Under the pieces are notes generated by a model. That model was not told the origin of the DNA. It worked only from the letters and a program-made list of their open reading frames with translations, and searched no databases. A DNA stretch of 50,246 bases from Candidatus Parcubacteria bacterium (GTDB lineage: Bacteria; Patescibacteriota; Minisyncoccia; UBA6257; 2-01-FULL-56-20), in contig JBEEJO010000002.1 of assembly GCA_041169145.1 (NCBI GenBank), forward strand, positions 1-50,246, written 5' to 3'. This document shows, piece after piece, positions 1,442-11,281 of this stretch (its first letter is position 1; each line of letters starts with the position of its first letter). Both the position numbers and the translations under genes were made by a program.

Positions 1442-2485
1442 TTATGTTCTCGTATAGAACATCGGCACATAATCGGAATCCGGATTCTCTGATTTGTATT
1501 TTATCAGAGCGCTTTGAAAAGCAGATCGCGGGCTTTGCCCAACGGTTAGGAAGTTATAGAAGTATGAAGAAAACTTTTTCGCTGAAGGAGAGCCAGCGCC
1601 ACCGCTGTAGGCAATAACGTTATCGGAGACCCCGTCTTTTATGAGATCGAAGGCAAGGCTTGTTGATCCTGTGCCACCGCCAGAGAAACAAAAGGATAAA
1701 TAAACTACTAAAAAATATGGCTTCGGATCGATTTTGAGGAGATTGATAAAGTCATTCTTACCTATGTGCACAATTTTGTCATAAGAAGTTGCATCCTCAA
1801 GACAAAGACGCCCGTCTTCTTCCCCGTGGAGCGCTATATGAACGTATCCGAATCTGTTCCATCCTATCTCCTCTACAGCCGTTCTTGTTCCGTGTTTGAG
1901 AAAGTGAACCTCGCTAATCCGAAAGGAATCTTTATTATTTTCGGTTATCTTCTTCAAAATATCGATGATCTCTTCGTTCACATCATTCCCAATGTTCGTT
2001 TTATCAGGCATATGAGAGTGGGACATTATTACTAAACAGCGATATTGAGAACTAACACTCCCTTGTTTATTTGCTGGATGCATTATTTCTCTCAATACAC
2101 AGATTCCATTGGCGATTGATTCCCACGGTAATTCGAGAAATTCGGCGAGCTCAGACTGGATTATCAATTCGGTATCAGTATTATTGATCAGATTTTCTGT
2201 AGGTTGCACATCTAGTTTTGACATTAGCAACTCAAGAACGGGGTTTAGATTTGTTCCTGCCAATGGATTTTGAGGTGCGAGGTTCAATGATTCTGAATCT
2301 AATATCTCGATGTCTTGTATTGCCGGTTTCATCTCAGAAGAGCGTTCATATGCTTTTTTGTATTCATCAAAAGACAGACGCACTTGAGGTTTGTTGCTAG
2401 CTTCCAGTTGAAGATAGTGAGCTAGACTCACTATCCCTGCTGAATCTTTGGTTCTTTCGATTACTGAAAAACCCTTTATGAGCAT
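1442..2485 (-). CDS. CHAT-domain (caspase-like) cysteine protease, short stand-alone form
   Basis: The 347-aa ORF has the layout of the CHAT family. ELPWESI lies near the domain start. The His box is VHIALHGEEDGRLCLED. The Cys box is FLVVYLSFCFSGGGTG. The trailing segment is VIAYSGGAGSPSAKKFSSYFYNFL. It starts 7 nt after the mod stop. Confidence 0.75.
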   Translation of the reverse strand: MLIKGFSVIERTKDSAGIVSLAHYLQLEASNKPQVRLSFDEYKKAYERSSEMKPAIQDIEILDSESLNLAPQNPLAGTNLNPVLELLMSKLDVQPTENLINNTDTELIIQSELAEFLELPWESIANGICVLREIMHPANKQGSVSSQYRCLVIMSHSHMPDKTNIGNDVNEEIIDILKKITENNKDSFRISEVHFLKHGTRTAVEEIGWNRFGYVHIALHGEEDGRLCLEDATSYDKIVHIGKNDFINLLKIDPKPYFLVVYLSFCFSGGGTGSTSLAFDLIKDGVSDNVIAYSGGAGSPSAKKFSSYFYNFLTVGQSPRSAFQSALIKYKSENPDSDYVPMFYTRT

Positions 2486-2492
2486 ACCGCAA

Positions 2493-4955
2493 TCATAGCT
2501 GAACCACCCTCATCACTTCGTCGCCGTAGTGGTTAATGACTTTGACGGCGATTTTGCCGGTCTTTGGTTTAGGGAATGGACGCGAAACTGTTGAATAGAG
2601 CTCCTCCCAAGCATCTTCGTTAATATCAGCACGGAGAGCTTTTTTTAATTTTTCATAGGGTTTATCTGCGCCGAGGAAGTAGGCGTGCGTAACAAAGAAT
2701 GCTTCACCGCTATAGTTCGTATCCAGGAACCAGGCCGCGATCTCGTGCTCGGGGTCGCCGGAGCCACTTGAACGAATTTCACTTTTCACGGGATCGTATA
2801 CATCCACGCCAGCTACCTCAACCACTACTCCGTCCTTGCCCTCTTTCACCGTGACCTGTGGCTCGCCGAATGCCAAGAAAAGGTTTCCAGAACCAGTCTT
2901 CTTCAATAAATCGCCCATTGAGAGGTCGGGGTTGATTTTCACTCGCATTACTCGCAAACCATCAATTTCTGATGGGACTGAAAATGCCGATGCATCGAAT
3001 GAGGTCGCGGCAACAACGAGCAAATCAGCAAATCTTTTCGCAACCTTAGCTGCGTCGCGAATAAAATCATCATCTATACTACCAAATTCCGGACCGATAG
3101 ATATAGCTACTTTCTTGAGGCCACTTTCGGTCTTATATTCACCAGATGCTTGAATCTCCGGACCACCAGGCAAGATGTCTAGATTCACAAATTCTACACG
3201 CGCTCCTTTCTGTCCGGTTTGCACTCCGGCTTTGAGCAGATTGGAAATAACTGTCTCTGCGAATCGTTCAGATGACACCATTTCCTGCGCATCAGAAACA
3301 CGGTGTGGCGAGAGAGATTCTACCGTAAAAGGACCAGTGACGCGTACTACTTCTTTGTTCTCAAATGGTTGATCGTAGAGAATCTCTTGCTCTGGTGACT
3401 CACTATTCGCTAAAGATTTTAATGTTATATGCGGAACTGTCTTACACTCAATCCCGGCGCTAACGTTATCTTTTTCTTTGAGCTTGTAGTATGGAAACCT
3501 GGCTGTCATGAGTCGAGTTCGGGCAAGCGCTAACGCAACGCGGGAAGTGTCAATTGTAATCCAGCGGCGGCCCCATTGCTCAGCCACATATGCAGTCGTA
3601 CCCGAACCACAAGTTGGATCGAGAACGAGATCTCCAGGATCGGTTGTCATAAGAACGCATCGCTGGATAACGCTGTGTGCCGTCTGTACAACATACGTTC
3701 GCTGGACACCAATTTGCATTGATTCCCATCTATCAGTAATCGGTACCACAGGAAAATCATCAACGAAACGACGATATCTAATTGTCGAACCCATAACTTC
3801 AATTCTATTCAGCTCAGCTAAGCGCTTTAATCCCAAGACGGTTGTTTTCCAATGCGCATCACCTCTCGGAAAGTATTTCTTACCTTGGAAAACAAATTCT
3901 TGAGGTTCTGCGGATGCTCCATCTGAATATAGTGGGGCAAGTTGATAGCGTTTCCCTTCTTGTGCAATCCGCCCCGTGAACAACTCTTCTGGAGACAATC
4001 GTCGTGATCCTCCGTCTTTTAATAGATACATATCATATCTATCAAGTGTTGTATCACCAACTTCTCTCGGCCTATACAATCTGCGAAATTTTGTCATTCC
4101 TTTATCTTTTGAATACCAGATGAGGTAGTCAACGGTCGATGAAATTAAATTAGACTCAACGCCACCCGTTTTTTGGAATGAAATTTGAGTAACAAAATTA
4201 CTGGATCCAAACACTTCGTCCATTAGATTACGAATAAGATGTACATTCTCGTCGTTGATTTGCACGAAGCATGAGCCGCCATCATTTAACAGCTCACGCG
4301 CAGTCGTCAAACGATCGCGCAAGTACGCGAGGTAAGAATGAACACCAAGCTCCCACGTATCGCGGAATGCCTTTACCTGCTCTGGCTGACGAACAAAATC
4401 ATCAAGCTTGTTGTCTTTTACATCGCGCTTCCGTGTCGAAACCTGCCAGTTAGACCCGAACTTAATACCATATGGTGGATCAATGTAAATCGTCTGAACT
4501 TTGCCTCGCAGACCCTCTTTTTCCAATAGACTGTTCATCGCAAGAAGCGAGTCACCGAGAATCATACGATTCTGCCAATTCTCTTCGTGCTTGTAAAAAT
4601 CAACTGCCTTTGCCGCTTGCTGTTCCGCCGTTTCGCCAAAGAGAAGTGTTTGAGCCGATTCCTGTGCGCCGGTCTTGAGACGAGCAATAATCGCTTCGGG
4701 AGCGATTTTCTCTTGAACGTAGATTGGAACGGTCGCTACCTCAAACTCTGCACCTGCCTCCTTCTTTCCAGACCAGACAAGTTGCGGATCGAACGATGGA
4801 TCATACTCATATTTCTTCTTAATTGGTTGCTTGTCCCGAGCAGAAAGTTTCACCGATTCTTCCTGAGTCGGAATACGAACACGTTTCTCGCCGTGTTTGT
4901 ACGAAGCGACGGGTGCCGCTTTGGTTGGCTGTAACATCTTCTTTGTTCTGCGCAT
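2493..4955 (-). CDS. mod: Type III-like R-M methyltransferase subunit (N6-adenine/N4-cytosine amino-methyltransferase, beta-class)
   Basis: 820-aa ORF. The catalytic DPPY motif (IYIDPPYGIKFGSNW) precedes the SAM-binding motif (VLDPTCGSGTTAYVAEQWGRRWITID). The conserved N-terminus reads KKKYEYDPSFDPQLVWSGKKE. It sits 9 nt downstream of the Res gene. Confidence 0.9.
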   Translation of the reverse strand: MRRTKKMLQPTKAAPVASYKHGEKRVRIPTQEESVKLSARDKQPIKKKYEYDPSFDPQLVWSGKKEAGAEFEVATVPIYVQEKIAPEAIIARLKTGAQESAQTLLFGETAEQQAAKAVDFYKHEENWQNRMILGDSLLAMNSLLEKEGLRGKVQTIYIDPPYGIKFGSNWQVSTRKRDVKDNKLDDFVRQPEQVKAFRDTWELGVHSYLAYLRDRLTTARELLNDGGSCFVQINDENVHLIRNLMDEVFGSSNFVTQISFQKTGGVESNLISSTVDYLIWYSKDKGMTKFRRLYRPREVGDTTLDRYDMYLLKDGGSRRLSPEELFTGRIAQEGKRYQLAPLYSDGASAEPQEFVFQGKKYFPRGDAHWKTTVLGLKRLAELNRIEVMGSTIRYRRFVDDFPVVPITDRWESMQIGVQRTYVVQTAHSVIQRCVLMTTDPGDLVLDPTCGSGTTAYVAEQWGRRWITIDTSRVALALARTRLMTARFPYYKLKEKDNVSAGIECKTVPHITLKSLANSESPEQEILYDQPFENKEVVRVTGPFTVESLSPHRVSDAQEMVSSERFAETVISNLLKAGVQTGQKGARVEFVNLDILPGGPEIQASGEYKTESGLKKVAISIGPEFGSIDDDFIRDAAKVAKRFADLLVVAATSFDASAFSVPSEIDGLRVMRVKINPDLSMGDLLKKTGSGNLFLAFGEPQVTVKEGKDGVVVEVAGVDVYDPVKSEIRSSGSGDPEHEIAAWFLDTNYSGEAFFVTHAYFLGADKPYEKLKKALRADINEDAWEELYSTVSRPFPKPKTGKIAVKVINHYGDEVMRVVQL

Positions 4956-4964
4956 GATATGTGG

Positions 4965-7946
4965 TTATTTAACCTTAAATAACGAATTGAATCCTCCATT
5001 CATGCCCGCACGGATAAGCTGCTGGGTTTCGTGAATGTCTTGAATCTCAATAATAGCCCATACCCCGAATTTGCCAGTGTTATTCACTGCTGGAACCCAG
5101 AAATCCCGCGCCGTTTTCACTTTTGCTACCTTTTTGTCGTCCTTCTTACCAGTAACTTCAATTAGCAGGTTGATGGTCGATTTATCAGGTAATTCCACTT
5201 TCACGATAAAATCCGGAACGTAGTAATGCGCCACACCTTGATGTTCGTACGGGACCGCGAATCCAAGATTCTGATTTTTCACATACGCTAATACTTCGGG
5301 CATCTCTTCTAAACGCTTGGCTACTCCCTGTTCCCATTCTTGGGTGTCTGCTACGACATAGTTTATGTGGCTCTTCACCGTTTCCTGCACGGGCTTAGTG
5401 GTTAGAAAATCGACGTACCGCGTAGAGCCGAGCGTATCGTATGGGGCGAGGATTGGAAGGAGCTTGCGATCTGTTTGATTTGATATGTTCTCTGTTACGA
5501 TCGCCTGCTGTATCTTGCTCAATGCTCCTGAAAGGTATGCGCCGACGGAAAGGTAGCCGATGACCATTTTATCTTTCAAGACAACGTGACTTTTCACATA
5601 CTCTTCGACGATACGTTTCAGTTGTGGGTGGAGCCAGTATTTTTCTGAACCATCCGCATCCGTATAGTAGCGTTTAAGTAGTCCAACCGTGAGATATTCA
5701 ACAACCGTTCCTTCGCGTCGCTCTTTGATTTTATCTAAAGTCTCCTTTTCTTCCGCTCCGATGAATCCACCCAACGTCACCTCCGTTGGTTCATTTTCGA
5801 TAACGGTGTCCGATTCCTTGGTGAAATGTGCAGCTAATTTCACCTCATTCAACTCATAGCGATAACCTTCAACGCGCGGGAATGTTATTTCATACTGCTC
5901 GCGGTCCGATAGAGAATGAACACGGTGTATGACTTTCGGCAGCTGTGGTTCGGGGCCTCCCTTCACTTTCAAGAAGTTAAATGGCACACCATAGACTTCC
6001 GCATATTCCGGAGATAGGAGGCCATTTTCATCGGCACCATAATCCACGCGCCGAAGAGCGCGACCGACGACCTGCTCACATAAAAGCTGAGTTGAGAACG
6101 CGCGTATGCCTAAAATATGAGTGACCGTATTCACATCCCAACCCTCTGTGAGCATAGAGACGGAGACAACACATTTAATTCCTTCGCCTAACTTACCGGG
6201 TTTACCAACGGTATTCATCACCTCGCGCAGAAGTTCCTCGTCGGTCGGCTCGTCCCGTCCCGGGAAACGCTTCCGATAGTCCTTATGAAAATCGTCGATT
6301 TCTTTTACGAAGATGTTCTTGAATTCATCACTGATCTTTTCGCCGCTCTCGATTTGGGCACTATCAATAAGCAAGGTATTCGGGCGATCAAGAAACCGAA
6401 CTCCGTCTTCGTTCCGAAACACGTCTAAATGACCTTTCTCAAGTTTGATTTTCTTGCTTGCAGTTTCATATTCGTATCCTGCAATCCAGCGATAGACCAT
6501 CTCAGAAACAGTCGTGTTATTGCACACAACGATCATGACCGGTGGCATCACGGCTGGATTTACCCTCTTTTGCTTTTCGTATTCTCGATAGTACTTTTCG
6601 TAACTACCGTATAGTGACGCCAGTGCTTCTTCGAGCTTCGTCGGCAGGATTAAAACCGAGAGATCATATTTGCCAGTTTTCATTCCTTTCTTCGGGAGTT
6701 CATCCCGAACATGGAGCCACAGATTACGGAACTCGGGCTCGGCGTCCGCTCGAATGGTGTCTGATTCCACGGGCAATCGAGGAATTTTTACTACGCCGCA
6801 CTCGAGTGCATCGAGTAGAGAGAAATCATAAACCGTCCACGGGAACATGGTGCCCTCTGTATACCCCGAACCACTCAAGAAATAAGGTGTTGCAGAGAGA
6901 TCTACTATTGCATTTACCTGAATTTTCTTTGAGAGTGCCTCAAGTCCGCTAATCCACACACGAGCAGCCTTATTGTTTTCATCAGCTTCTTTCCGTTCTT
7001 CGCCCGATAATTTTTCCTCCGTAGGGCGCTCTCGGTAGCAGTGGTGCGCTTCATCATTAATAACCAAAACCCGAGGCTTGTTCAGAACACTTTTGAACGC
7101 CCGGTTAACCATTGCACTGGGCGTTTCTTTTATTGCATCTTCCTTGATAAGCCCCGCGGCTTTCATAACCGCACCGATTTGGAATCGTGGATTTTGCCGC
7201 TGTTCAAGCTGATGAAAATTCGTGATGAAAACAGTCGCCTGTTGAAGTGCCTCGAAGTCTTGGTATGAGACGATATTCCGTTGCAAATAATAGTTATGCG
7301 GATCGTTTGGTAGAAGAACATTCAAACGATCACGAATTGTTATCCCCGGAGTGACAATAACGAATGCATCTGTGAATCGCGTGTCTTGCGGGTAACGAAT
7401 CTTGTTCAGCGTATTGTAAGCTATGACCATTGCCATAACGACAGTCTTTCCGGAACCGGTCGCCATCTTAAACGCCAATCGGTATAGCCCAGGATTCGCT
7501 TCTGTATTCGCTTTTTTGATGCCGTTAATAATCCAACTCTCGCCGGTTTTTTCAGCAACCTCATTCACGTACATCAGAGTTTCCAGTGCTTCGATCTGGG
7601 AAAAGAACAGCTTATTCTCCCGAGATTCGTCACTCCAATATCCGAGAAGATCGCGAGATGTTTTTGTGAGTCCTGCATAACCGGACTGGCGCCATTCTTT
7701 CACTTTGGCGCGAACCTTATTGATAAACTCATTCTCCTTCTGGAGTTCGCTCCCATACGCCCCCTCAGCAAGATTAATATCTAACTGATCCTGTTTCGTT
7801 TTTGCCCGTGGAGCTGGTATATAAAAAGTGCTCGGTCGGCGCTCCTCCAGTACTTCGTTTGTTAGCCCACGCTCGTCGGATTTGAAGTGACGCGTCGGCT
7901 CAACGTAAGGGGAATTGAGGATCGGATTGTCGATTTGTTCCGGCAT
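4965..7946 (-). CDS. res: Type III-like restriction enzyme Res subunit (SF2 DEAH helicase with a C-terminal PD-(D/E)xK-like nuclease)
   Basis: 993-aa ORF. Walker A is MATGSGKT, DEAH box is VINDEAHHC, motif III is LSATPYF, and motif VI is TEGWDVN...QVVGRALRR. The C-terminal nuclease-like segment reads YVPDFIVKV...LLIEVTGKK. The N-terminus is NPILNSPYVEPTRHF. Confidence 0.9.
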   Translation of the reverse strand: MPEQIDNPILNSPYVEPTRHFKSDERGLTNEVLEERRPSTFYIPAPRAKTKQDQLDINLAEGAYGSELQKENEFINKVRAKVKEWRQSGYAGLTKTSRDLLGYWSDESRENKLFFSQIEALETLMYVNEVAEKTGESWIINGIKKANTEANPGLYRLAFKMATGSGKTVVMAMVIAYNTLNKIRYPQDTRFTDAFVIVTPGITIRDRLNVLLPNDPHNYYLQRNIVSYQDFEALQQATVFITNFHQLEQRQNPRFQIGAVMKAAGLIKEDAIKETPSAMVNRAFKSVLNKPRVLVINDEAHHCYRERPTEEKLSGEERKEADENNKAARVWISGLEALSKKIQVNAIVDLSATPYFLSGSGYTEGTMFPWTVYDFSLLDALECGVVKIPRLPVESDTIRADAEPEFRNLWLHVRDELPKKGMKTGKYDLSVLILPTKLEEALASLYGSYEKYYREYEKQKRVNPAVMPPVMIVVCNNTTVSEMVYRWIAGYEYETASKKIKLEKGHLDVFRNEDGVRFLDRPNTLLIDSAQIESGEKISDEFKNIFVKEIDDFHKDYRKRFPGRDEPTDEELLREVMNTVGKPGKLGEGIKCVVSVSMLTEGWDVNTVTHILGIRAFSTQLLCEQVVGRALRRVDYGADENGLLSPEYAEVYGVPFNFLKVKGGPEPQLPKVIHRVHSLSDREQYEITFPRVEGYRYELNEVKLAAHFTKESDTVIENEPTEVTLGGFIGAEEKETLDKIKERREGTVVEYLTVGLLKRYYTDADGSEKYWLHPQLKRIVEEYVKSHVVLKDKMVIGYLSVGAYLSGALSKIQQAIVTENISNQTDRKLLPILAPYDTLGSTRYVDFLTTKPVQETVKSHINYVVADTQEWEQGVAKRLEEMPEVLAYVKNQNLGFAVPYEHQGVAHYYVPDFIVKVELPDKSTINLLIEVTGKKDDKKVAKVKTARDFWVPAVNNTGKFGVWAIIEIQDIHETQQLIRAGMNGGFNSLFKVK

Positions 7947-8039
7947 AATAATTCAAACACATCATCCCTCAAAAAGGGTCGTTTGTCTAGGAATATCAAT
8001 GCTCCGCAGACTTGCTTTGATTTCAACTTCGCGTCATCA

Positions 8040-8230
8040 TTTGAATACAACTGAATAGGGCTCAGCCCAGGCCTAAACCAGGCGGTTCCACCGCCCGGCA
8101 TGGCTCCTGAAAACCTGTGATAGATACTGAACCCCGCGTTCAGCAAACTGTCACAGGTCATATCCCGAAAGGGGTATGGGGCGTAAGCCCTAGCTGATGC
8201 GGGGTTCTGTGCGTCAAGCCCCGCCATACT
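8040..8230 (+). ncRNA. Candidate structured RNA or 5' leader of unknown class; the strand is uncertain
   Basis: This is a GC-rich block inside an otherwise AT-rich 298-nt divergent intergenic region. The plus-strand hairpins are as follows. 8078-8085/8091-8098 has one A-C mismatch. 8113-8120/8151-8158 encloses 8127-8132/8138-8143. 8160-8166/8171-8177 is capped by a GAAA loop. 8178-8182/8187-8191 is capped by a GUAA loop. 8199-8204/8219-8224 is the last. An alternative 9-bp pairing exists between 8129-8137 (GAACCCCGC) and 8199-8207 (GCGGGGTTC). The two GNRA loops favour the plus strand. Confidence 0.35.
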
Positions 8231-8244
8231 CATCATAAAAATAT

Positions 8245-9351
8245 ATGGCCATAATCATCTCCAAGAACGGCAAGAATGCGAAGCGCGTGGACGAATCGAA
8301 GTTCGAATACGAAGATCACCTTCAGCAATACATCTACGACAACCCCGACAGCATTCCTCTCTATGACATCAAGGAGGATATCCGCCTCCTTATCCTCTCT
8401 CGCGAGTTCCAAACGGAGAGCGGTCCTATCGACGCGCTCGGTATAGATAAGGACGGTGAGATCTATCTCATCGAGACGAAACTGTATAAAAATCCAGACA
8501 AGCGACTCGTCGTCGCCCAGGTTTTGGATTACGGCGCGGCTATCTGGCTGAGCAAGCGTGGCTACGAAGAAATCGTCGCCTCTCTCGAAGAAGCGGTACG
8601 CAGAAATTTCAAAAAGGGCTTGCGCGAGAAAATATCCGAATTTTATGGAATCGGCGAAGTGGAGACCGATACGCTTTTGGAAAACTTCAAAAACAATCTG
8701 AATAAGGGGGTCTACAAATTCGTGGTCCTGATGGATAAGCTCCACGACCGGCTGAAAGACCTCATCCTTTTCATAAACGAAAACAGCAAGTTCGATATCT
8801 ACGCGGTGGAGCTCGAATTCTACAAGCACGAGGATTATGAGATAGTGATTCCCAAGATATTTGGAGCTGAAGTCAAAAAAGATCTGGGAGTGACAAAAAG
8901 CGCTGGGAAACGGTGGGATTGGGATTTGTTCAAACATCGCTTGCAGGAGTTCGGTGAAGAAGAGGTGCGAACGGCAGAGCAAATCATCGAATGGGCCGGA
9001 AAAAATGGCATTGAAATAGAATGGAGCAACAGCCAACGTGGCGGCTTCTTCCTGTGCTACTATCCCGAAGGCAAAAAGGGATTCTATCCCTTCGGCGTGA
9101 CGGGTGACGCCAGGGTCTCGTGGAACGTCCCTCATGCAGGGGGCAAAAGTCCCGCACCGTTCGACAAGCTTGAAAAACGAGCGGAGATATTGAAGCGCCT
9201 TCAATCGGTTAAGGGTGCAGCGATTGATTTAGGCAACGTAGACGGGTTCAACGGAATGAAGTTGCCCTTGCGTGAGCTTGCGGACGAAGGTGCCCGCCGC
9301 GAATTCTTCGCGGTCTGTCTGTGGATCAAAAAAGTGTTGGAGACCGAATAA
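8245..9351 (+). CDS. PD-(D/E)xK (NucS/RecB-like) nuclease-fold protein with a C-terminal domain of unknown function
   Basis: 368-aa ORF. The core GPIDALGIDKDGEIYLIETKLYKNPDKRLVVAQVLDYGAAIW shows the D...ExK...QxxxY arrangement typical of NucS/Cas4/RecB-type nucleases. The roughly 323-aa antisense ORF (8233-9204) is low-complexity and was rejected. Confidence 0.7.
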   Translation: MAIIISKNGKNAKRVDESKFEYEDHLQQYIYDNPDSIPLYDIKEDIRLLILSREFQTESGPIDALGIDKDGEIYLIETKLYKNPDKRLVVAQVLDYGAAIWLSKRGYEEIVASLEEAVRRNFKKGLREKISEFYGIGEVETDTLLENFKNNLNKGVYKFVVLMDKLHDRLKDLILFINENSKFDIYAVELEFYKHEDYEIVIPKIFGAEVKKDLGVTKSAGKRWDWDLFKHRLQEFGEEEVRTAEQIIEWAGKNGIEIEWSNSQRGGFFLCYYPEGKKGFYPFGVTGDARVSWNVPHAGGKSPAPFDKLEKRAEILKRLQSVKGAAIDLGNVDGFNGMKLPLRELADEGARREFFAVCLWIKKVLETE

Positions 9352-9355
9352 ATCA

Positions 9356-9655
9356 ATGACCGAAGACGAAACCAGGCTGAAGGAATTTATAGACGGCAAC
9401 ACCTGGATTTTTGCCAAGACATATGCGAAAACTGCCCCGCACGAGTACGTGGTGTACGATCGTCTAGATACGGAGGGTCGCAAGGAGTACGACTGGTTCA
9501 TGGGACAAATCGAGGAAAATGGAGTTGATGAGAAGTTCTACAACACAACGTTCAGGTACCTCTATTTCGGCGGCATGAAATATTGGGTTCACGACACGAA
9601 GGAAAGAGAAGGAGGCGTATTGAACAGGGATCTGGCGACGAGCAAATACGGATAG
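9356..9655 (+). CDS. Small conserved hypothetical protein (99 aa)
   Basis: The ATG at 9356 lies 4 nt after the nuclease stop. The sequence reads MTEDETRLKEFIDGNTWIFAKTYAKTAPHEYVVYDRLD...KYWVHD. From memory, the WIFAKT..PHEY motif recurs in small proteins of mobile elements, but I cannot name a family. The track start at 9272 would overlap the nuclease by 80 nt and is less likely. Confidence 0.5.
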   Translation: MTEDETRLKEFIDGNTWIFAKTYAKTAPHEYVVYDRLDTEGRKEYDWFMGQIEENGVDEKFYNTTFRYLYFGGMKYWVHDTKEREGGVLNRDLATSKYG

Positions 9656-9744
9656 CGCCCCTCTGCTTCTCGCGGCTACCAAGGCTTTTGGGAGCATTTA
9701 GGGCACTCTGGACGCCCCTCGGGGTTCGCGTCATCCATTGGGGT

Positions 9745-11079
9745 ATGACCAACCAAACTATGGGGTCCAATGGGGCTGGGACCCAACAAGCAAGCCAGCT
9801 CCCACCAAAGGTCAGATACCTTTTATACGCCCGGAAGAGCAGCGAGTCGGAGGAACGCCAAGTCCTTTCCATCGATTCGCAGGTGAAAGAGATGATGCAA
9901 CTCGCCGAGCGCGAGGGGCTTGAGATCGCGGAGGTCCGGAGGGAAAGCCACTCGGCCAAAGCCACCGGTCAGCGCCCCGTGTTCAATGAGATTCTGAACG
10001 ATGTCAGGTCGGGCAAGTTCAACGGTATTCTCACCTGGGCACCGGACCGCATCGCGAGGAACGCCGGGGACCTGGGAGCGGTGGTGGACTTGATGGACCA
10101 GAAACTGCTTCTGGAGATACGGACGTTCGGCCAACGCTTCACCGATTCGCCGAACGAGAAATTTCTCCTCATGATCTTGGGGTCGCAGGCGAAACTGGAG
10201 AACGACGCGAGGGGCGTGAATGTGAAACGCGGTCTGCGGACAAGGGTCGAGATGGGACTCTGGCCGGGCATGGCCCCGCTCGGCTACCTCAACCAAAAGA
10301 TGATGGACAAGAAGTGCCAGATCGCCGTGGATCCGGCGCGCGCGCCAATCGTGAAACAGATGTTCGAGAAAGTGGCGCATGAAAAATGGTCGGGTCGGAG
10401 GGTATACAACTGGCTGAGGTTCGAGCTGAACTTCCACACGCGAGGCAACAAGCCCCTCACGCTCTCGGGTATCTACCGAATGCTCACGATGCCGATTTAC
10501 TACGGGATGTTCGAGTTTCCGCGAAAGAGCGGCAACTGGTACCAAGGCAAACATAAGCCGCTCATCACCGAAGAACTTTTCCAGCAGGTGCAAGCACAGC
10601 TCAAACGGGATCAGATTGTGCGCGAGAGCAAGGAGTTTGCCTTCACAAAATTATTCACCTGCGGACTTTGCGGATCGGGCATATCAGCCGAGGAAAAATT
10701 CAAGGACCTCAAGGGCGGCGGCGTGAACCGCTATGTCTACTATGGATGTTCGAGGGCGAGAGACCGTAACTGCAAGAACAAATACATCCGCGAAGAAGAG
10801 CTGATCGATGAGTTGATCAAGATTCTCGACAAGGTGAACATCAACGAACTCGGCATGAAGATGAAGCTCGAAGACGAGATTCGACGATTCAACAAATTAC
10901 AGAAACTCATGAACCGGAATAACGGAAAGCAGGCGATCGAGGAAACCGATGTGAATATCAGGGAATACGCTAAATATCTCTTGCGGGAAGGGAGCGCCTC
11001 GGAAAAGCGCGAGTTGTTGGCGAATCTGCGAAGCAGGCTGATCTACCAGAACAAAACACTGCGCCTGGTCGAGGAGTAG
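9745..11079 (+). CDS. Large serine recombinase (resolvase/invertase catalytic domain, recombinase domain and zinc ribbon)
   Basis: The N-terminal catalytic region is VRYLLYARKSSESEERQVLSIDSQ...WAPDRIARN. A recombinase domain follows, then a Cys cluster (CGLCGSG...YYGCS...NC) and a coiled-coil tail. I prefer the start at ATG 9745 (MTNQTMGS) over the track start at 9583, whose first 54 residues are Arg-rich and look noncoding. Confidence 0.9.
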   Translation: MTNQTMGSNGAGTQQASQLPPKVRYLLYARKSSESEERQVLSIDSQVKEMMQLAEREGLEIAEVRRESHSAKATGQRPVFNEILNDVRSGKFNGILTWAPDRIARNAGDLGAVVDLMDQKLLLEIRTFGQRFTDSPNEKFLLMILGSQAKLENDARGVNVKRGLRTRVEMGLWPGMAPLGYLNQKMMDKKCQIAVDPARAPIVKQMFEKVAHEKWSGRRVYNWLRFELNFHTRGNKPLTLSGIYRMLTMPIYYGMFEFPRKSGNWYQGKHKPLITEELFQQVQAQLKRDQIVRESKEFAFTKLFTCGLCGSGISAEEKFKDLKGGGVNRYVYYGCSRARDRNCKNKYIREEELIDELIKILDKVNINELGMKMKLEDEIRRFNKLQKLMNRNNGKQAIEETDVNIREYAKYLLREGSASEKRELLANLRSRLIYQNKTLRLVEE

Positions 11080-11088
11080 ATAAAAAAT

Positions 11089-11119
11089 AAACAGAGCGAG
11101 AATCGCTCTGTTTATTTTT
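11089..11119 (+). terminator. Rho-independent terminator after the recombinase gene
   Basis: An 11-bp perfect stem, AAACAGAGCGA (11089-11099) paired with TCGCTCTGTTT (11103-11113), has a GAA loop and is followed by ATTTTT. An A-run upstream could make it bidirectional. Confidence 0.75.
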
Positions 11120-11194
11120 CACTTCTCTACCGAAGCACTCGGGTCACAGCTTGACCTCAATTACTCGGGTTTATCCGATAGAAAAATGTCACTG

Positions 11195-11281
11195 CGGAGA
11201 GGGAGGGATTCGAACCCTCGATACCATTTCTGGTATACAGTCTTTCCAGGACTGCCAATTCAACCACTCTTGCACCTCTCC
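11195..11281 (-). tRNA. tRNA-Ser, anticodon GGA
   Basis: Hand-folded cloverleaf. The acceptor stem is GGAGAGG/CCTCTCC with discriminator G. The D stem is 3 bp with a GG-containing loop. The anticodon stem is CAGTC/GACTG with loop CTGGAAA. The long variable arm is ATACC-AGAAA-GGTAT. The T arm is GAGGG-TTCGAAT-CCCTC. It is 87 nt long and CCA is not encoded. Confidence 0.9.

Follow-up and report, generated by a model that had tools for sequence, protein, structure and literature searches.

A LOOT family RNA upstream of a nuclease gene in a Parcubacteria contig carries a conserved long-range helix and may serve as a two-state leader

The window analyzed here is a stretch of 50,246 nucleotides (nt) from Candidatus Parcubacteria bacterium (contig JBEEJO010000002.1 of assembly GCA_041169145.1), and our subject is the intergenic region in it that lies between the minus-strand res gene of a type III restriction-modification system and a plus-strand gene for a candidate nuclease. 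A preliminary description of this region, made from the sequence alone, had proposed a structured RNA with GNRA tetraloops and mutually exclusive helices, and had suggested a scan against Rfam. That scan (cmscan) returned a named family that the description had missed: positions 8070-8190 of the plus strand match RF03000, the LOOT RNA, with 77.4 bits compared to a gathering score of 46.4 (E = 6.1e-13). The match spans model positions 1-121 of 121, is not truncated, and is the sole Rfam 15 match in the whole window. The element at 8070-8190 belongs to the LOOT family, and nothing speaks against its membership. The name of the family stands for "lots of tetraloops". The motif stems from the screen of Weinberg et al. 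2017 (PMC5737381), is included in the Rfam 14 and Rfam 15 papers, and was described in the CaCoFold paper as having ~43 base pairs in six helices with 28 "cross-covariations". It has been on record from that screen onwards, and part of Rfam from release 14, without a function and with metagenomic members only; we found no function for LOOT in the searchable literature, which did not cover the supplement of the original screen. The features of the window copy are as follows.

8012-8040, plus strand: putative promoter, with -35 TTGCTT at 8012-8017, a 17-nt spacer and -10 CATCAT at 8035-8040, proposed from the alignment with other LOOT loci
8047-8058, plus strand: conserved 5' box ACAACUGAAUAG, likely the transcript start region, from family conservation
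8058-8068, plus strand: small extra hairpin GGGC-UCA-GCCC between the 5' box and P1, read from the sequence
8070-8190, plus strand: LOOT RNA core, the RF03000 match
8070-8073/8102-8105, plus strand: helix P1 (cmscan alignment)
8072-8103, plus strand: receptor-like CCUAAAC (8072-8078) and GCAUGG (8098-8103), flanking P2
8078-8084/8092-8098, plus strand: helix P2 (cmscan alignment)
8114-8124/8147-8157, plus strand: base of helix P3 (cmscan alignment)
8125-8132/8138-8145, plus strand: apex of P3, with loop CCCGC at 8133-8137 (cmscan alignment)
8125-8139, plus strand: 5' strand (X) of a long-range helix, made of the P3 apex 5' strand, the loop and 2 nt more (columns 84-101 of alignment A1, see below)
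8159-8166/8171-8178, plus strand: helix P4, 8 base pairs, with the GAAA loop at 8167-8170 (cmscan alignment)
8179-8182/8187-8190, plus strand: helix P5, with the GUAA loop at 8183-8186 and a possible extra pair G8178-U8191
8191-8217, plus strand: 3' tail outside the Rfam model, with the U-rich end UUCUGUGC (family alignment)
8197-8211, plus strand: 3' strand (X'') of the long-range helix, within the tail
8199-8204/8219-8224, plus strand: local hairpin GCGGGG/CCCCGC, -14.7 kcal/mol with its extension
7862-8236, minus strand: mechanical open reading frame (ORF) of 124 amino acids, across the whole LOOT element and the res start

All six LOOT helices (P1-P5 and the P3 apex) are formed in the cmscan alignment, with GAAA capping P4 and GUAA capping P5, and P2, P3 and P4 were recovered independently by a minimum free energy fold. 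The conserved LOOT letters are in place at 8072-8078 (CCUAAAC), 8098-8103 (GCAUGG) and 8167-8170 (GAAA). The hairpins listed in the preliminary description are real, with coordinates that are exact or off by at most 1 nt, and each of them is one of the LOOT helices P2-P5 except the last, at 8199-8204/8219-8224, which is likewise present. The small hairpin at 8058-8068 is an insertion seen in few loci, two of which (L108 and L113) carry a GCCC-GAAA-GGGC hairpin at the same place. Positions 8040-8244 fold at -88.1 kcal/mol, compared to -60.2 ± 4.7 kcal/mol for dinucleotide shuffles (n = 200; z = -5.9; none of the 200 as good), which together with the RF03000 match bears out a structured plus-strand RNA with GNRA tetraloops. 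The GC-rich core in an AT-rich intergenic region that had been described is also present, but the contrast is only modest (GC content of 0.52-0.57 in the core vs 0.39-0.40 at 7900-8049, on the res side). An extended covariance model of our own that includes the tail (R1) scored 105.7 bits at 8068-8217, and a search with this model found no second LOOT copy in the window. Covariance models score LOOT on the plus strand only.

That the region is protein-coding, or that it is a GC-rich remnant with chance hairpins, we regard as extremely improbable. A 124-amino-acid ORF does exist at 7862-8236, but it overlaps the res start codon region, and both versions of this explanation are opposed by the fold z-score, by the Rfam E-value of 6e-13 and by helix-wise covariation in more than 100 loci. 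The minus-strand ORF is most likely not a gene and is to be dropped from the annotation, and 8047-8217 would be annotated as a LOOT leader rather than as a gene fragment.

For comparison, we scanned one genome per species with the pattern CCTAAAC-N(10-26)-GCATGG-N(40-70)-CCGAAAGG, which gave at least 120 loci; all family counts in this text are among the matches listed. A scan of viral contigs with a slightly stricter pattern (GCCTAAAC...GGCATGG) gave 5 further loci. Five genome matches (L016, L018, L080, L084 and L119) and four viral matches (L001-L004) were excluded by eye as chance; R1 detected none of L001-L004, L016, L018 and L080 as LOOT and gave just 18.8 bits to L084, and L119 lay outside the R1 search. 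The ~115 LOOT loci that were compared come mostly from metagenome-assembled genomes (MAGs) of Patescibacteria, or Candidate Phyla Radiation (CPR), and the others are labelled Gammaproteobacteria, Bdellovibrionales, TM6 and DPANN archaea, labels which for MAGs may be wrong. The Rfam LOOT threshold was passed by 18 of 18 sampled comparison loci. A further set, independent of the pattern, consists of 13 LOOTs found on metagenome contigs upstream of homologues of the 368-amino-acid protein encoded next to LOOT in the window.

Beyond the end of the Rfam model, LOOT continues into a 3' tail that is conserved in the family (consensus ~GCUGGCGGGGAGCUUUUUGU in the loci listed with 90 nt of downstream sequence). 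This tail pairs with the tip of the long hairpin P3 (8125-8139 with 8197-8211 in the window). When 115 loci were aligned by sequence only with MAFFT (A1), 15 pairs joined columns 84-101 to columns 194-208; each of these pairs is changed on both sides in some of the sequences, and 89.4% of the cells are paired. The eight core pairs of the tail helix are paired in 96-100%, with 3-6 pair types each; pair 95:197, for example, is UG in 47 loci, CG in 33, AU in 14, GC in 12, UA in 8 and GU in 1, and is unpaired in none. When the partner was slid by 1-3 columns as a control, whole-structure pairing in A1 fell from 81.7% to 37-52%. The duplex between apex and tail is stronger within a locus than between loci (-29.1 vs -19.3 kcal/mol; p = 6e-45), and its GC core averages -14.9 kcal/mol in the family. 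In the independent set of 13 LOOTs, 90.8% of the cells are paired and 12 of the 15 pairs are changed on both sides, with slid controls at 45-56%. The window copy forms 14 of the 15 pairs canonically, the exception being U8128/U8208, at -26.5 kcal/mol. The 9-base-pair alternative that the preliminary description had noticed, in which GCGGGGTTC (8199-8207) is fully complementary to GAACCCCGC (8129-8137), is the core of this helix, and the comparison of homologues that it had recommended yielded LOOT loci in more than 100 genomes, in which the tail helix covaries. The tail helix is a conserved, covarying helix that is absent from the published LOOT model, and it is the best-supported helix in this alignment. 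It is followed on average by 6.0 U in 9 nt, with at least 5 U in 105 of the 115 loci.

The structure is strand-specific, because many of its plus-strand G-U pairs (in A1, UG in 47 loci at 95:197, GU in 41 at 86:206 and UG in 67 at 101:194) would be A-C mismatches on the other strand. The same pairs argue against an element that acts as DNA, be it a recombinase attachment site, a replication origin or a single-stranded-DNA promoter. Long imperfect inverted repeats and a large serine recombinase gene that adjoins LOOT in many loci would fit such an element, but GNRA loops and a receptor-like motif are characteristic of RNA, LOOT is preceded by a promoter-like site, and the covariance model scores the plus strand only; we consider this explanation very improbable.

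The 5' strand and loop of the P3 apex double as the 5' strand of the tail helix, and the apical hairpin and the tail helix therefore exclude each other. On the MAFFT alignment just 51.9% of the apical stem is paired, which we attribute to poor alignment of this variable region, and we therefore compared strands within and across loci in an alignment-free test. The two strands of the apex pair at -6.6 kcal/mol within their own locus and at -3.5 kcal/mol with other loci (p = 2e-31), while apex and tail pair at -14.2 and -8.2 kcal/mol, respectively (p = 2e-43). Both alternatives are thus stronger within their own locus than across loci, indicating that the mutually exclusive pairing which the preliminary description had proposed is evolutionarily maintained. 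Changes in the apical stem are also compensated between subfamilies when inspected by eye (CUGAAC/GUUCAG, CCAAAC/GUUUGG, GCUC/GAGC and CGGUC/GACCG). In the window, the hairpin at 8199-8204/8219-8224 competes with the long-range helix for the tail, and the apical hairpin (-6.2 kcal/mol) plus this local hairpin (-14.7 kcal/mol) roughly balance the long-range helix (-26.5 kcal/mol). In 20 of 113 loci the tail pairs with the sequence behind it in a comparable way, above the 5% cross-locus threshold.

Upstream of the core, a TATAAT-like -10 box lies 5-8 nt before a conserved ACAAY box in LOOT loci, and at least 9 of 12 promoter consensus positions are matched in 70 of 117 loci. The 5' box, ACAAY(U)KAAU(A), is located ~12-15 nt before CCUAAAC and outside the Rfam model; 76 of 116 loci have ACAAY in the 32 nt that precede CCUAAAC, compared to 6 of 116 in a control window. 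One other locus (L006) shares an identical 13-mer, TACAACTGAATAG, with the 5' box region of the window. A consensus scan of the window found no plus-strand promoter. The ACAA of the 5' box could pair with UUGU of the tail, the box being too invariant for a covariation test.

Downstream, an ORF of at least 70 amino acids starts on the same strand within 400 nt in 97 of the 106 evaluable loci, on the opposite strand in 2, and not at all in 7. The distance from the U-run to the first in-frame start codon has a median of 35 nt (interquartile range 19-44), and in the window the ATG at 8245 lies 28 nt past the tail end at 8217. A gap of ~35 nt is too short for a separate promoter, which implies that expression of the cargo gene has to come from the LOOT promoter. 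In 70 of the 106 loci the neighbour upstream of LOOT is divergent. From these positions, LOOT is best fitted by a promoter-proximal 5' leader of the downstream gene. The preliminary description had offered three options, and the one that fits best is a leader for the nuclease gene, given the same-strand gene in most loci and the promoter-like site, although a specific partnership with the nuclease is not supported; a leader of the restriction-modification/CHAT operon does not fit, as this operon is transcribed from the opposite strand, away from LOOT.

In a subset of loci, LOOT is tied to the next gene through sequence as well. In 28 of 117 loci, 9 nt or more of the 5' basal strand of P3 recur exactly in the downstream sequence (controls: 1-5 loci), and 31 of 113 loci pass the 5% cross-locus threshold of duplex energy for complementarity between the P3 3' strand and a start-region copy of the P3 5' strand. 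These copies are 9-18 nt long, differ in sequence across loci while matching within a locus, end 0-8 nt before the AUG, and often stand in place of a recognisable Shine-Dalgarno sequence. They pair with the P3 3' strand often as well as P3's own 5' strand does, or better. Loci with such a copy include L005, L020, L022, L024, L036, L041, L042, L049, L056, L057, L064, L067, L083, L088 and L111; in L088 and L111 the copy is perfectly complementary at the site of a wobble or mismatch in P3, an argument for selection acting on the RNA. In this respect ~27% of LOOT loci, with their complementarity to the start region of the next gene, resemble those encoding the c4 antisense RNA of phages P1 and P7 (immI operon: c4, icd, ant; PMC8198154). 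Both RNA regions also hold a second copy of the target sequence, and both are found in temperate or integrative elements. They differ in that the complementary stretch of LOOT is a stem strand rather than a loop, and the window copy is without the feature; the Rfam c4 models gave no match in the window, even at E ≤ 10 in 7800-8400.

These observations bear on whether LOOT is a stand-alone, trans-acting small RNA (sRNA) with its own promoter and an end at the U-run, the downstream genes being hot-spot neighbours that are expressed by leaky read-through. Rfam types the family as "Gene; sRNA", whereas its genomic arrangement here is leader-like. The promoter-like site and a GC-rich helix followed by a U-run, which would define the 3' end, suit an sRNA, as do downstream genes that are mutually unrelated and the 7 of 106 loci with no ORF of at least 70 amino acids within 400 nt. 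We nevertheless hold an sRNA of this kind to be unlikely: the strand bias is extreme (97 same vs 2 opposite), the ~35-nt gap makes the gene depend on the LOOT promoter, a simple terminator needs no maintained competing apical hairpin, and in 27% of loci LOOT is connected with the gene behind it through the complementarity of the P3 3' strand to the start region. An sRNA is also compatible with the leader reading, since attenuation would release a short RNA too.

Compared to RF03000, then, the window copy shares the full-length match, the six helices, the GAAA/GNRA loops and CCUAAAC with GCAUGG, and the analysis of window and family adds the 5' box, the promoter-like site and a ~27-nt tail with a covarying helix, all outside the Rfam model. 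The window element is a further member of a known family. Neither the Rfam model nor the searchable literature, which did not include the original supplement, contains the tail helix, the promoter with the 5' box, the leader-like arrangement or the setting in mobile elements.

We lean towards reading LOOT as a cis-acting leader with a two-state switch that gates its cargo gene, here the NucS-like nuclease, a reading to which we give somewhat better than even credence from the comparative sequence evidence. A promoter ~20 nt upstream of the LOOT core would start the transcript near 8047, and transcription would proceed through a folded RNA of ~165 nt (about 8047-8217) into the cargo gene at 8245. 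In state A, the tip of P3 would pair with its own 3' strand to give the apical hairpin of the Rfam fold, allowing read-through. In state B, the tip would pair with the tail instead, and the resulting 15-base-pair helix, which in most members ends in a U-run like an intrinsic terminator, would cause premature termination; in some loci state B may also mask the start region. Docking of the P4 GAAA loop on the CCUAAAC/GCAUGG motif would help to set the balance between the states. The transcript ends, termination at the U-run, the assignment of the "on" state and the tetraloop-receptor contact are all inferred here from sequence.

This arrangement resembles riboswitches and attenuators in that a folded domain sits in a 5' leader and two exclusive helices share one strand, one of them ending in a U-run; the LOOT region before the start codon is variable, containing a local hairpin, a start-region repeat or nothing. 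The differences from those systems are among the points that weigh against a two-state switch. The LOOT cargo genes have neither a pathway nor a function in common and so offer no hint of a ligand. The terminator-like helix is unusual, being long-range rather than a local hairpin, with strands ~60 nt apart that enclose three helices, and it could be part of one native fold in which the apical hairpin is a folding intermediate. RNA ends, termination and read-through are predictions, and the Rfam type given above points to an sRNA. Among the sequencing runs sought for the window and for L057, L134 and L005, the only transcriptomes were three tiny SOLiD metatranscriptomes, which contained none of the sequence words looked for; the other runs were of DNA. 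The search pattern fixes CCTAAAC, GCATGG and CCGAAAGG, so that their conservation in our own alignment is there by construction and the invariance of these three motifs in it means nothing; their conservation rests on the upper-case letters of the Rfam consensus and on the independent nuclease-derived set, in which the receptor-like letters vary (CCUAACC, GUAUGG) and GAAA caps P4 in all 13 LOOTs. Forcing the tail to be unpaired in silico left the accessibility of the start region unchanged (0.57 vs 0.59; p = 0.85; 81 loci), also in the window (0.646 vs 0.656), and a general translational platform is therefore not supported. The window copy itself has a weak U-run, UUCUGUGCG, with 3 U in 9 nt compared to the family mean of 6.0, its promoter matches 7 of 12 positions only, and it is without a start-region repeat, whether sought as an exact copy of at least 9 nt or by the duplex threshold. 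Termination may be inefficient in the window copy, which may mainly serve as a structured leader.

A candidate that we rejected in this connection is a general anti-Shine-Dalgarno platform; five nuclease loci had suggested a chain from the tail to CCCNNCCAGC, GGAGGG and ATG, which was unsupported across the 81 loci.

The unchanged accessibility would also fit a fixed structural module without a switch, in which the long-range helix belongs to a single native fold and the RNA is a platform for an element-encoded protein or for RNA polymerase, as in processive antitermination, or a 5' stabiliser or insulator that would uncouple cargo expression from the identity of the inserted gene. The put RNAs of phage HK022 are cis-acting, promoter-proximal antiterminator RNAs made of two simple stem-loops. 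Like them, LOOT is a structured RNA just downstream of a promoter-like site that heads operons in a prophage-like element, and its interchangeable cargo, its compact architecture rich in tertiary contacts, the invariant GAAA loop and the receptor-like motif are what such a module would be expected to have. The last of these resembles the 11-nt GAAA-tetraloop receptor, whose sequence is CCUAAG/UAUGG (PMC11381326): CCUAA and AUGG of LOOT flank helix P2 and an invariant GAAA loop occurs elsewhere in the same RNA, but CCUAAAC/GCAUGG puts A opposite C at the G-U position of the receptor. The GAAA loop of P4 is presumed to be the partner of this motif. A fixed module remains in our judgement quite unlikely. 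The competing apical hairpin is itself maintained by compensatory change and is also in the Rfam consensus, it cannot form fully together with the long-range helix, and no conserved protein partner of LOOT was found among the neighbours, the commonest of which is a large serine recombinase (47 of ~117 loci).

The two-state leader can be extended, tentatively and with more doubt than confidence on our part, to an "on"-type riboswitch-like leader of integrative elements in CPR and other small-genome organisms. By stabilising the Rfam fold, a signal (small molecule, ion or element-encoded factor) would keep the tail from invading it and so license the cargo, and in a quarter of copies the variable P3 stem might in addition lock the start codon as a programmable antisense sequence.

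The genes around LOOT in the window run in the order CHAT, type III mod and res (minus strand), LOOT, nuclease, large serine recombinase, terminator and tRNA-Ser, with the following features.

2493-4955, minus strand: type III restriction-modification mod
4965-7946, minus strand: type III restriction-modification res
8245-9351, plus strand: nuclease cargo gene, 368 amino acids, with a NucS-like (PD-(D/E)xK-type) N-terminal region, candidate defence family
9583-11079: large serine recombinase, mechanical ORF from TTG
11083-11119: perfect 16-base-pair inverted repeat AAAAATAAACAGAGCG / CGCTCTGTTTATTTTT with A and T runs at its flanks, between the recombinase stop and tRNA-Ser
11194-11281: tRNA-Ser(GGA)

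The only solid match of the 368-amino-acid protein is to the PADLOC family PDC-S11 (5e-18); the matches to Pfam NucS_C (19 bits vs a cut-off of 24; E = 0.0014) and to NCBIfam NucS (23.5 bits vs 216) are both below cut-off, and its 1912 homologues are all unnamed. LOOT lies directly upstream in 13 of the 44 nuclease homologue loci with at least 200 nt of upstream sequence; conversely, the nuclease is present in 6 of ~117 LOOT loci and sits behind three different LOOT subtypes. We rejected LOOT as an obligate RNA partner of the nuclease on these counts, and the partial co-occurrence and the three subtypes indicate that RNA and gene are separable modules.

Across the family, the proteins encoded downstream of LOOT are almost all unrelated to each other. 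They include DNA methyltransferases, SNase, DUF2726, T5orf172, HSDR_N_2 and NOV_C nucleases, bPH-domain and zinc-ribbon proteins, an Ltp-type lipoprotein and the PADLOC candidate families PDC-S11 and PDC-S18. Besides the large serine recombinases, the genes within a few kb encode ParB-methyltransferase fusions (21 loci) and tyrosine integrases (11 loci); terminase subunits and primase-helicases are further neighbours, and the vicinity often includes tRNA genes. In 18 loci there is a gene for a small conserved DUF5659-like protein of ~81-99 amino acids, 0.3-2.8 kb upstream of LOOT, usually as the second gene and on the opposite strand; it is possibly a regulator of the element. Cargo and neighbours place LOOT at the start of accessory-gene units in integrative, partly prophage-like elements, and the gene order in the window agrees with this.

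An RNA listed as an orphan motif would in this way be placed at the head of cargo and defence-gene units in integrative elements of Patescibacteria and similar organisms, and becomes a testable two-state leader. Should the switch be real, it would be a regulatory device common to many mobile elements in a branch of life barely open to experiment, and genes like the PDC-S11-like nuclease would be marked as regulated cargo.

On the minus-strand side of LOOT in the window, the unit at 1442-7946 consists of mod and res followed by a gene for a 347-amino-acid protein with a weak CHAT match (E = 0.003, below the Pfam cut-off), all diverging from LOOT. On the other side, the ~55 N-terminal residues of the recombinase ORF that precede MTNQTMG... 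look non-homologous and the Resolvase domain begins at residue 81; the true start is probably further downstream than the TTG. The inverted repeat at 11083-11119 resembles a bidirectional terminator. A repeat of the tRNA-Ser end, as expected of an att site, was not found elsewhere in the window at a length of 12 nt or more, which leaves the left end of the island undefined.

Among 100 comparison loci, only L098 contains LOOT twice, at 4059-4200 (98.4 bits) and, 2.5 kb away and in the same orientation, at 6699-6832 (47.7 bits). In L034 (labelled Nanoarchaeia) and L075 (labelled Uhrbacteria), LOOT and the 90 nt that follow it are the same letter for letter, and the ORFs around them agree in length and spacing; this identity between an archaeal and a bacterial MAG reflects either mis-binning or a very recent transfer of the element. 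The excluded IMG/VR contigs L001-L004 hold a short element (9264-9352 in L001) with CCUAAAC...GGCAUGG, a GGAGCC-GAAA-GGCUCC hairpin and then a U-run, which precedes an ORF of 690-760 amino acids; it is without the long P3 hairpin, and could be a minimal relative of LOOT or unrelated to it. Finally, a Saccharibacteria contig (L012) contains a group I intron (RF00028, 100.4 bits) at 2065-2299, ~5.5 kb from its LOOT.

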